Assembly: GCF_000026545.1 (NCBI RefSeq)
Contig: NC_011601.1
Reading direction: 5' to 3' (one strand)
Origin: Escherichia coli O127:H6 str. E2348/69
Lineage (GTDB): Bacteria; Pseudomonadota; Gammaproteobacteria; Enterobacterales; Enterobacteriaceae
DNA: 64,000 nt
The notes below the pieces were generated by a model. It was not told the origin of the DNA. It did no database searches and saw nothing but the letters and a program-made list of their open reading frames with translations. Numbering within the stretch: the first letter of the stretch is position 1; every line of letters starts with the position of its first letter. Shown here in pieces: positions 56,516 to 62,919 of this stretch. Made by a program: the position numbers and the translations under genes.

Positions 56516-56732
56516 TTACGCTACCATGCTAATAATCAACACCATAATCAGCCCAACCACGGAGTTGACCAGCTCCAGCAGACCCCAGGTTTTCAACGTG
56601 TCTTTTACTGACAGGTCAAAGTAATCTAAGAGGCATTGCTAATGTAGGGAATGTGTCTGAACCTGCGGTCATTGTCAGTACCAGCATCAGACCAATGCCG
56701 AATACCACTCAGAGAATGTTAAGCACATGCAT
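56516..56732 (-). pseudogene. gntP: Remnant of a gluconate:H+ symporter (GntP-family) gene: N-terminal about 20 codons fused out of frame to the C-terminal about 35 codons
   Basis: Minus-strand translation gives MHVLNIL*VVFGIGLMLVLTMTAGSD... then, in another frame, ...[33 protein letters not shown]; a hairpin terminator follows the stop. Only about 217 bp where an intact gene would be about 1.3 kb. Confidence 0.6.
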
Positions 56733-59866: not shown

Positions 59867-59935
59867 GCCCACCTGTACGTGCCAACATCCAGTGCTAATG
59901 GTATAGTTTGAGCTTAACGGGTGCCGTAAAATTGC

Positions 59936-59973
<38 letters not shown>

Positions 59974-60011
59974 AAAAAATTTGATTAACCGCACCTAACG
60001 GACACAACACC

Positions 60012-60785
60012 ATGAAATCTGCCACCTCTGCGCAAAGACCTTACCAGGAAGTCGGGGCGATGATCCGCGATCTGATCATAAAGACGCCGTACAATCCTGG
60101 CGAACGGCTGCCACCGGAGCGTGAAATTGCAGAAATGCTTGATGTCACGCGGACGGTGGTACGTGAAGCGCTGATCATGCTGGAGATCAAAGGGCTGGTG
60201 GAAGTGCGTCGGGGTGCAGGTATCTATGTTCTTGATAGCTCAGGCAGCCACAACGCAGACAGTCCGGATGCCAACGTCTGCAACGATGCCGGTCCTTTTG
60301 AGCTGTTACAGGCGCGGCAGTTACTGGAAAGTAACATCGCCGAGTTTGCCGCCCTGCAGGCTACCCGCGAAGATATCGTCAAAATGCGCCAGGCATTGCA
60401 ACTGGAAGAGCGTGAACTGGCTTCCAGCGCGCCGGGCAGCAGCGAAAGCGGTGACATGCAGTTCCATCTCGCTATTGCCGAAGCAACGCATAACAGCATG
60501 CTGGTGGAGTTATTCCGTCAGTCCTGGCAGTGGCGGGAAAACAATCCAATGTGGATCCAGTTGCACAGCCACCTGGATGACAGCCTGTATCGCAAAGAGT
60601 GGTTGGGCGATCACAAACAGATCCTCGCCGCGTTAATCAAAAAAGATGCCCGAGCGGCGAAGCTGGCAATGTGGCAGCATCTGGAGAATGTGAAGCAGCG
60701 CTTGCTGGAGTTCTCTAATGTTGATGACATCTATTTCGATGGCTATCTGTTTGATTCATGGCCGCTGGATAAAGTCGACGCCTGA
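60012..60785 (+). CDS. uxuR: GntR-family transcriptional repressor of the uxu regulon
   Basis: 257-aa ORF with N-terminal GntR HTH and FadR-type C-terminal domain; position after uxuAB. Confidence 0.92.
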   Translation: MKSATSAQRPYQEVGAMIRDLIIKTPYNPGERLPPEREIAEMLDVTRTVVREALIMLEIKGLVEVRRGAGIYVLDSSGSHNADSPDANVCNDAGPFELLQARQLLESNIAEFAALQATREDIVKMRQALQLEERELASSAPGSSESGDMQFHLAIAEATHNSMLVELFRQSWQWRENNPMWIQLHSHLDDSLYRKEWLGDHKQILAALIKKDARAAKLAMWQHLENVKQRLLEFSNVDDIYFDGYLFDSWPLDKVDA

Positions 60786-61189
60786 TCCCTCATTTCTGGT
60801 GCAAAGTTGAACCGCTTTGCACTATGTATGTTCCCTGAATAGTTAATTATGTTCTGCAGAATATATTATGCGTAAATTAATCATTACGTACGATATATTG
60901 TTTTGGAATAATTATATATCAGTTTAACGCTGAGAAATTATTCGGAATAATCAGAATATGTTAACGTATTTCCGTTATGTTTAATGACTTTTGTCAAATG
61001 ATACCTTTTTAAATAAAAAGTCAGTGGATATTCTTTTCTGTACAGTGTTTTATCTTTGGCGGATCTTATAAATCCCTTATGAAAGTGCCAGGGACGCAAT
61101 GAGCATAAAGGAATGATTATGGAATATGAGCATCAACCCAGTGGTGTCCGGCAGCCAGGGCAGGATACAGATGCCACTAAACGTCAGGA

Positions 61190-61582
61190 GTGCGCAAAAT
61201 GATGCGCCAATCAGTTCAGACGGTATTACCTGAAAGTACAGGAAACAATACGTTATCGCTGCGTGATTCCGTATGCCGGGATCTCTTTCAACTTTTTAGT
61301 TCTCCCCATTCACCGCTACCAATATTACTTGTTTCAGGCATGCCTGAGTGGCAAGGGCATAATCAGAGCGACAAGCTTCTCCAGAGTTGGTATTGCCGCC
61401 AGTTACGTTCCGCGCTTTTATTTCATGAGCCACGTATTGCGGCATTGCAGGTCAATCTGAAAGCAGTCTATTGCCACGAGTTGGTCATTAGTCTGGATAT
61501 GATGCTGTACCACGATGATGAGCCGCTAACGTTTGACCTGGTCTGGCAGAAGGGGAGCTGGCATCGCACGATGCCGCAGTAA
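61190..61582 (+). CDS. iraD: Anti-adapter protein IraD-like
   Basis: 130-aa ORF; position between uxuR and hypT and size match IraD (YjiD); sequence only partly recognised. Confidence 0.6.
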
Positions 61583-61629
61583 ATGACGGGAAACGCGATA
61601 CGCGCAAGACGTATCGCGTTAGGTCACAA

Positions 61630-61971
61630 TTAGTGGGAGGTTCTGATTGCTGCTTTCAAGGCCGGAAGCCGGGACGGACTGGCACTGAGCTTATCAATCC
61701 CCATGGTGAGCAGTCGTGCTGTTTGCTGGGTATCTCCAGCCATTTCGCCGCACATACTGACCGGAATTTCATTATTACGTCCGGCCTGACACACCATAGC
61801 AATAGCGTTAATCACCGCGTCATTACGATAATCGACCAGTTCCGCGACGGTGCTATTTCCTCTGTCTGCCGCCATAATATATTGCGTCAGATCGTTGGTG
61901 CCGATGGAAAAGAAATCGACTTCACTGGCTAATTTTTCTGCAATCATGACTGCAGCAGGAACCTCAATCAT
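61630..61971 (-). pseudogene. C-terminal fragment of a PEP-utilizing enzyme (enzyme I / PEP synthase-like) gene
   Basis: 113-aa ORF containing the PEP-utilizing enzyme signature DFFSIGTNDLTQYIMAADR but lacking the rest of a protein that is normally over 500 aa. Confidence 0.5.
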
Positions 61972-62007
61972 AATTCCCAGCGCCGGAAGATTTTCTGCAG
62001 AAAACTT

Positions 62008-62919
62008 TCAGCCAGGTTCAATCTCCAGCTCGCGCAGTTCACGCCAGAAGCGTTCGGCAACTGGATTCATGCGGGTATTCATCCGGTATGCATAGGCCTG
62101 AATCGGGATTACCAGTTCGTCCCGATTCAGTACAACGAGCTGCCCGCTGCGAATTTCTTGTTGTATGGCGTACTCCGGTAGCCAGGCAATCCCACAGCCG
62201 TCGAGGGCAACCTGCTTTAAAAGCTCGCTCATCGAAGAGACAAAAAAGGTGCTGAAACTCAACTCACTGTGGCGCGTCAGAGTGCGATTAATCAATCGTC
62301 CCATGTAGGAGTTGCGGCTGTAATTCAGTAACGGAAAGTGTGGCTGAGCGAGGTTAAAAAGTGCTTCTCCGTATTCGTCACTGGCGCAGACGGGGAACAA
62401 TTGAGATTCAAATAAGCGGATGTGGTCAAACGGCGCTTCCAGCAAATCTTCGTCGTGAAAGGAAAAAATACAGTCACTTTGCCCTTCGCGCAGTTTATCG
62501 ACCGCTTCATCGACATCAATGGCTTCAATTGCCCAGGTAAAGATCGGCGGCATCTGGCTGATAATGGACGGTAACAGACCGAGGGAAAGAGAGTGTGCAG
62601 CGGCTATCTTGATTTTACGTTGCGCGTAATCGCTGCCGCCACGCAGCTCTGCCAGATTGCTCTCTAACTGTTGCAACAGATGGCGGATCTGCGAATGGAA
62701 GATTTTCCCTTGTTCTGAGAGTTGCAGCGGCGTTACCTGGCGGTTAAATAATTCAACACCAATCGCCTGTTCCAGTGCACGGATGCGGCGGCTGAATGCT
62801 GGTTGCGAGACGTTGCGACTGACTGCCGCCTGGGAAAAATTGCGACATTTTTCCAGGGTCAGAAAATCATAAAGCCATTTGGTTTCAATGTTATGCAAAA
62901 CCGCACCACAGTCATCCAT
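62008..62919 (-). CDS. hypT: LysR-family transcriptional regulator (hypochlorite-responsive HypT)
   Basis: 303-aa product from the Met at 62919 (MDDCGAVLHNIETKWLYDFLTLEK...); LysR HTH; context next to iadA. Confidence 0.8.
   Translation of the reverse strand: MDDCGAVLHNIETKWLYDFLTLEKCRNFSQAAVSRNVSQPAFSRRIRALEQAIGVELFNRQVTPLQLSEQGKIFHSQIRHLLQQLESNLAELRGGSDYAQRKIKIAAAHSLSLGLLPSIISQMPPIFTWAIEAIDVDEAVDKLREGQSDCIFSFHDEDLLEAPFDHIRLFESQLFPVCASDEYGEALFNLAQPHFPLLNYSRNSYMGRLINRTLTRHSELSFSTFFVSSMSELLKQVALDGCGIAWLPEYAIQQEIRSGQLVVLNRDELVIPIQAYAYRMNTRMNPVAERFWRELRELEIEPG

Follow-up and report, generated by a model that had tools for sequence, protein, structure and literature searches.

The short uxuR-iraD interval of Escherichia coli E2348/69 as the probable iraD control region of an alternative uxuR-hypT haplotype

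Following DNA damage, and when cells enter stationary phase, RpoS levels are set by anti-adaptors that include IraD, and to our knowledge all mechanistic work on IraD, covering the P1 and P2 promoters, ppGpp, DnaA, SspA and CsrA/idlP control, has been carried out on the K-12 allele. In a 64,000-nucleotide stretch of the E. coli O127:H6 str. E2348/69 genome (contig NC_011601.1; hereafter, the window), iraD follows uxuR after only some four hundred base pairs, and the K-12 gene yjiC is missing from between them. The locus thus raises the question of whether the difference from K-12 is specific to this strain, as an earlier note on the sequence had proposed, or marks a different iraD control region altogether. 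We consider it highly probable that the interval comprises all of the iraD control region belonging to one of two discrete and long-standing uxuR-hypT haplotypes in Escherichia. The genes that frame the variable segment are the following:

60012-60785, plus strand: uxuR coding sequence (RefSeq)
61199-61582, plus strand: iraD, encoding a 127-aa variant, with its Shine-Dalgarno AGGAG at 61186-61190 (RefSeq and K-12 alignment)
61630-62004, minus strand: GimA remnant, a 3' fragment of the PEP-protein phosphotransferase gene pptE/ptnI ('ptsP') corresponding to aa 670-793 of 793
62008-62919, minus strand: hypT (yjiE), the right boundary of the variable segment

From the uxuR stop codon to the iraD ATG, the gap covers 60786-61198, or 413 bp, and lacks yjiC, as determined from RefSeq and alignment to K-12. 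The earlier description of a gap of about 400 bp rich in A and T holds, except that its end had been set at 61189 by taking an in-frame GTG at 61190 as the start codon, in place of the true ATG at 61199 given by RefSeq and the K-12 alignment. The GC content is 35.8% over the full gap, 31.5% upstream of idlP and 27.8% at 60826-61062, as compared with 48.1% for the 64-kb window, where only 4.4% of 413-bp windows are comparably AT-rich. The corresponding distance in K-12 MG1655 is 1,643 bp and accommodates yjiC, a gene of the DUF2686 (YjfZ/YjiC) family (831 bp, minus strand), ytiC, ytiD and idlP. An equally short interval in K-12, which the earlier note had named as the observation that would count against it, is thus not found, and its statement that K-12 carries yjiC between uxuR and iraD proves correct; in tblastn searches of the 64-kb window neither YjiC (no match below E=2) nor YtiC has a homologue. 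The view that the interval controls iraD is likewise upheld; the label "noncoding" fails for 61119-61198, part of the idlP leader open reading frame, which is conserved, so that the gap is not wholly noncoding even though RefSeq annotates no feature between uxuR and iraD in the short haplotype. We regard a further, minus-strand open reading frame at 60938-61099 (53 aa) as spurious. As for an assembly artefact, the 801 bp at 60600-61400 are 100% identical in the E2348/69 assembly NZ_CP059840.2, and the short gap is shared by five independent E2348/69 or O127:H6 assemblies and by hundreds of other genomes, which rules out such an origin.

Segment-wise pairwise alignments of the window with K-12 reveal that the difference is not confined to the missing gene. 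uxuR is identical to its K-12 counterpart until 60685, accumulates 13 substitutions within the 55 bp at 60686-60740 and returns to identity through the stop codon; this patch probably marks the haplotype's left recombination boundary, or else mosaicism. The alternative haplotype accordingly spans from about 60686, within the 3' end of uxuR, to 62007, at the 3' end of hypT, and the homologous parts of this segment share 65-80% identity with K-12, as against 96-97% for the flanking uxuB, uxuR and hypT. Further upstream, the uxuB-uxuR spacer harbors a REP-like palindromic element (…GTAGGTCGGATAAGGCGTTCACGCCGCATCCGG…) at 59925-59975. Within the gap and upstream of the predicted promoter, the alignments delineate the following elements, all on the plus strand:

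60786-60864, plus strand: haplotype-specific segment with no K-12 counterpart, kept in Escherichia sp. E1V33, E. whittamii and 'E. coli' SCPM-O-B-8794 (alignment)
60797-60824, plus strand: terminator-like hairpin 3' of uxuR, GGTGCAAAG...CTTTGCAC
60865-61050, plus strand: AT-rich region homologous to K-12 -333 to -150, which lies upstream of P2 and encodes ytiD in K-12 (alignment)
60939-60959, plus strand: conserved block TATTCGGAATAATCAGAATAT, identical to K-12 at 20 of 21 positions
61016-61033, plus strand: conserved block AAAAGTCAGTGGATATTC, identical to K-12 at 17 of 18 positions and located at the -35/upstream position of P2

The hairpin at 60797-60824 is unlike the K-12 uxuR/yjiC hairpin in sequence and is present in all short-type Escherichia loci. 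Downstream of it, similarity to K-12 is patchy at 60865-60936 (from -333) and becomes BLAST-detectable and robust from 60936 (-264), with 65-73% identity; in the alignment of 60865-61050 to K-12, no start codon opens the ytiD frame, which is also interrupted by an in-frame TAA and thus not intact. The two conserved blocks are 95% identical between haplotypes that are elsewhere about 65% identical, and as such represent candidate regulator sites for P2. The block TATTCGGAATAATCAGAATAT, which has a 9-bp deletion in E. albertii, includes the palindrome TATTC-G-GAATA and overlaps the 5' half of a HusR (YnfL) site predicted in K-12. An Rfam search of 60600-61700 at E<=1 returned no matches, and a repeat scan of the interval recovered only short AT-rich pairs of no evident meaning.

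In K-12, iraD is transcribed from P1, with a start site at -417, and from P2, with a start site at -137, the two lying 280 nt apart with ORF23 and ORF47 in between (PMC5574718; bioRxiv 10.1101/2021.05.20.444958). P1 is the main K-12 promoter in late log and stationary phase (bioRxiv 10.1101/2021.05.20.444958), and the ytiC transcript is the one most strongly induced by AZT, 260-fold (PMC11228462). The DNA that would hold P1 and ORF23/ytiC is absent from the window, where K-12 homology stops at about -333, and the promoter element for which an equivalent can be assigned is that of P2:

61051-61056, plus strand: P2-like -10 hexamer TATCTT (TATACT in K-12), assigned by register with K-12 P2

By the same register with K-12 -137, the start site is predicted at A61063. 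Both alleles have a poor -35 region, and a scan for the sigma-70 consensus yields two matches against 2.4 expected by chance, neither of them at P2. With P1 and ytiC missing and ytiD disrupted, P1 input to iraD is expected to be absent from this haplotype, where the gene probably depends on P2 alone. It is also possible that transcription reaches iraD from another source, be it a haplotype-specific promoter in the AT-rich 60826-61050 or read-through from uxuR.

Downstream of the predicted start site, the leader retains sequence equivalents of K-12 control elements. In K-12, CsrA binds at BS2 (-112 to -103), BS3 (-90 to -84) and BS4 (-78/-77), and the stop codon of ORF27 (idlP) overlaps the iraD start (PMC5574718), while a DnaA box is found at -81 (bioRxiv 10.1101/2021.05.20.444958). 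The equivalents in the window are as follows:

61063-61198, plus strand: predicted iraD leader, 136 nt (137 nt in K-12; alignment)
61087-61096, plus strand: equivalent of CsrA site BS2, GCCAGGGACG, with its GGA at 61092-61094 (sequence)
61109-61115, plus strand: equivalent of CsrA site BS3, which is the idlP Shine-Dalgarno AGGAATG, with its GGA at 61110-61112 (sequence)
61118-61126, minus strand: equivalent of the K-12 DnaA box at -81 (alignment)
61119-61202, plus strand: idlP (ORF27) leader peptide open reading frame, 27 codons, unannotated by RefSeq
61121-61123, plus strand: equivalent of CsrA site BS4, a GGA within ATGGAA (sequence)

The GGA motifs of the putative BS2, BS3 and BS4 are, as sequence matches, in register with K-12 -107, -89 and -78. 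The idlP stop codon, TGA at 61200-61202, overlaps the iraD ATG at 61199-61201 as ATGA, and both the length of idlP and this stop/start overlap are kept in all eight Escherichia loci examined at a dN/dS of about 1, a pattern that fits an upstream reading frame whose translation outweighs its peptide in importance. RefSeq/PGAP leaves the intact idlP unannotated in E2348/69 and other short-haplotype genomes and annotates it in K-12-type genomes. Set beside the K-12 region (Park et al. 2017, PMC5574718; Sass et al. 2021/2022), the window has in common a candidate P2-equivalent -10 element, a leader of nearly the same length, the GGA motifs of BS2, BS3 and BS4, a 27-codon upstream frame with its ATGA overlap, a DnaA-box-like element at -81 and an identical Shine-Dalgarno/start region (-25 to +11). 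Unlike K-12, it lacks P1, ORF23/ytiC, an intact ORF47/ytiD and the divergent yjiC; its leader is only 73% and its IdlP only 63% identical; and the BS1 GGA lies at the predicted 5' end of the transcript. The DnaA box is one mismatch weaker, TATTCCATA in the window matching the consensus at 7 of 9 positions and departing from the relaxed consensus at position 2, as compared with 8 of 9 for TTTTCCATA in K-12. A C-to-G change in iraD codon 6 falls in the segment predicted to pair with the Shine-Dalgarno and would weaken the pairing that ViennaRNA predicts in K-12. Minimum free energy z-scores of the leader are not significant in either allele (+1.2 in the window, -0.65 in K-12), and the consensus fold has 31 pairs with a single compensatory change and includes a small invariant hairpin across the start codon; folding and covariation thus speak neither for nor against the published hairpin that would sequester the iraD Shine-Dalgarno.

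Put together, the K-12-type locus runs in the order uxuR, yjiC, P1, ytiC, ytiD, P2, idlP, iraD (130 aa) and hypT. In the window-type locus, uxuR is followed by a terminator-like hairpin of its own, some 80 bp of unique DNA, the P2-upstream region, the P2-like promoter, the 136-nt leader with idlP, iraD (127 aa), GimA or its remnant, and hypT. By homology with K-12, the P2-like promoter would start transcription near 61063, CsrA bound at the conserved GGA sites surrounding the ribosome-binding site of idlP would repress idlP translation, and iraD would be translated only by coupling to idlP via the ATGA overlap.

The divergence of the control region extends into the gene that it serves. Window iraD shares 76% amino acid and about 80% nucleotide identity with K-12, and the pair shows a dS of 0.84, as against 0.18 for uxuR of the same two genomes, with a dN/dS of 0.14 that indicates purifying selection on both alleles. 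The product is a bona fide family member: it matches the NCBIfam model NF010728 with 293.1 bits (cutoff 196) over residues 1-127 of 127, also passes NF010726 and is homologous to the crystallised IraD (PDB 6OD1_B, E=2.7e-55). Among the NCBIfam IraD subtypes, which comprise NF010726 (130 aa), NF010727 (126 aa) and NF010728 (127 aa), it is thus the last that is matched end to end. As compared with K-12 IraD, the C-terminus is three residues shorter and the last ten or so residues are unrelated, because K-12 iraD overlaps hypT and window iraD does not.

On its other side, iraD borders a locus whose polymorphism is already established. Homeier et al. (2010, PMC2878320) described a 'GimA remnant', a 342-bp open reading frame equal to the 3' end of pptE, between yjiD (iraD) and yjiE (hypT) with the rest of GimA absent. 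The window conforms to this pattern, as its open reading frame at 61630-61971 is 342 bp long and 99% identical to the 3' end of UTI89 ptsP, DhaL and DhaK are absent from the 64-kb window, and the primers of PMC2878320 map as expected, with 0 and 1 mismatch for pptE and a 746-bp yjiD-yjiE amplicon. UTI89 has the same iraD allele and short interval, followed by a full island before hypT in the order ptsP, dhaL, dhaK, glycerol dehydrogenase, transporters, glycerate kinase, gcl, dhaR, ibeA and nhaC; this island is the published GimA locus. We examined a simple microhomology deletion from a UTI89-like island as the origin of the remnant, as the 8-bp TTCTGCAG occurs at both UTI89 borders, yet rejected it. 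The 18 bp past the remnant junction carry seven differences from UTI89 (right border) and K-12 and are identical to E1V33, which argues that the remnant is old and not a recent deletion from a UTI89-like island. The C-terminus of HypT reads ELEIEPG in the window and ELEIVLS in K-12 (hypT 3' end, 62008-62025), and the UTI89 annotation of hypT is 57 bp shorter, which places the last hypT codons within the variable segment. The GimA papers (PMC2878320, and PMC7545054, where the locus is termed 'PAI-iraD (GimA)') deal with the iraD-hypT side only, mention neither yjiC nor uxuR and do not report the distinct iraD allele and upstream region of GimA-positive and remnant strains. Elsewhere in the neighborhood, RefSeq annotates a 108-bp GntT/GntP-family permease fragment upstream of uxuA (about 56516-56623, minus strand), where UTI89 has a pseudogene of the same size; it may represent another reduction.

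Across 5,426 complete E. coli genomes, the two arrangements are sharply separated. The full interval is found in 491, at 99% identity or more in 483 of them; another 4,903 align over no more than its 3' 263 bp, with about 72% identity, and are thus K-12-type, in keeping with the presence of the K-12 yjiC-P1 segment in 4,900, and no interval of intermediate form was found. About 9% of E. coli thus carry the short form, among them UTI89, F11 and a record named ST38, and presumably also CFT073, given its GimA-remnant pattern in PMC2878320. We found the 3' end of ptsP in 511 genomes, the junction between remnant and hypT in 265, and the former without a full-length window-type interval in 20.

To place both forms within the genus, we scanned one genome per species, which returned six loci, one of them on a contaminant contig. 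That sixth locus, NZ_ABFU01000118.1 (605 bp), from a Bacillus coahuilensis m4-4 draft, encodes an IraD 100% identical to K-12 together with the hypT 3' end and is almost certainly E. coli contamination. The remaining five are arranged as follows:

Escherichia sp. E1V33: short interval, with the same GimA remnant junction as the window
E. whittamii: short interval, no GimA remnant
'E. coli' SCPM-O-B-8794: short interval, hypT degraded to fragments (positions 7391-7722 of locus L007)
'E. coli' E69: short interval, hypT absent and iadA directly after iraD
E. albertii NBRC 107761: long interval with yjiC (62% amino acid identity to K-12), full ptsP-dhaL

The degradation or loss of hypT in SCPM-O-B-8794 and E69 indicates that the iraD-hypT junction is unstable across the genus. 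The interval and iraD of the window are 94-99% identical to E1V33, E. whittamii and SCPM-O-B-8794, while the uxuR and hypT flanks are 89-91% identical; toward K-12 the relation is reversed, with 96-97% for the flanks and 65-80% for the interval and iraD. K-12-type iraD is the outlier of the genus, at a dS of 0.69-1.18 to all other alleles, as against 0.05-0.58 for the window type. In E. albertii, the leader and idlP are K-12-like (84% and 78% identical to K-12 versus 70% and 52% to the window) and the iraD coding sequence is closer to the window type, which makes its locus a mosaic; its yjiC-iraD spacer aligns only weakly with that of K-12, and its combination of yjiC and full-length GimA ptsP-dhaL beside iraD is found in none of the E. 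coli genomes examined. With K-12-type iraD as the outlier, yjiC in E. albertii and the short form in the others, both arrangements are old.

These data bear directly on how the short interval arose. Recent loss of yjiC and upstream DNA by a deletion specific to E2348/69, along the lines of the earlier note, would fit the roughly 1.3 kb of additional DNA in K-12 and the reductions nearby in E2348/69, namely the GimA and gntP remnants, but we judge it extremely improbable: 483 genomes from many sources carry the interval at 99% identity or more, three other Escherichia lineages carry it at 94-99%, the shared DNA is only 65-80% identical to K-12 and so is not K-12 minus a piece, and the left 80 bp have no K-12 counterpart at all. 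The term "strain-specific" is accordingly abandoned. An insertion in the opposite direction, with yjiC, P1 and ytiC entering an ancestral short interval to yield a derived K-12 form, is suggested by the presence of the short form in E. whittamii, E1V33, SCPM-O-B-8794 and E69 and by the outlying dS values of K-12-type iraD; however, of the species sampled, E. albertii diverges most, and it has yjiC in the same place along with full ptsP-dhaL, while its leader and idlP lie nearer to K-12 than to the window. The scan yielded no outgroup locus outside Escherichia. We hold this polarity to be conceivable and on balance doubtful.

The near-identity to the cryptic clades, on the other hand, suggests exchange between species. 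The short haplotype could have entered or left B2-type E. coli lineages by recent homologous recombination with cryptic clades and would then not be an ancestral polymorphism, a history that we consider a real contender even as we lean somewhat against it. In its favor, the leader and iraD are 99.3% and 96.2% identical to E. whittamii, with the flanking uxuR and hypT at 90.1% and 88.9%, iraD shows a dS of only 0.05-0.11 to E1V33 and E. whittamii, and the substitution patch at the uxuR 3' end resembles a recombination boundary. Strong constraint on the regulatory region could nevertheless explain part of the high identity, the ibeA phylogeny is consistent with MLST and GimA has been proposed to be ancestral to B2 (Homeier et al., PMC2878320), and six outgroup loci are too few to give direction or timing. 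Recombination would in any case concern only the history of the locus and leave unchanged the identity of the interval, in which we continue to see, in all probability, the whole iraD control region that goes with one of the two old haplotypes.

Taken by itself, the short interval amounts to an ordinary difference between haplotypes, at a locus whose polymorphism was known, and is a minor comparative observation. We found no description of natural variation in the uxuR-iraD interval in the literature searched, and the regulatory consequence, a diverged IraD probably dependent on P2 alone, is plausible from the sequence comparisons and apparently new. About 9% of complete E. coli genomes, including those of the model pathogens E2348/69 and UTI89, lack P1, ytiC and yjiC and encode an IraD 76% identical to that of K-12, so that K-12 results should be checked before they are transferred to these strains. 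The pair of haplotypes also provides a natural test of which leader elements are essential, as the idlP frame and its overlap, the CsrA GGA motifs and the two upstream blocks survive some 30% divergence and ytiD does not. More speculatively, and as an extension that we regard as rather unlikely, the two haplotypes might constitute a long-lived trans-species polymorphism that rewires RpoS control, with short-haplotype lineages running a diverged IraD from P2 alone, devoid of both the P1-driven late-log and stationary-phase burst of IraD and the ytiC transcript that DNA damage strongly induces. If so, E. coli lineages would show systematic differences in RpoS stabilisation following replication stress, linked to the GimA virulence locus, and the short-haplotype lineages concerned would be a subset of B2 ExPEC, EPEC E2348/69, ST117/ST38-type strains and the cryptic clades.
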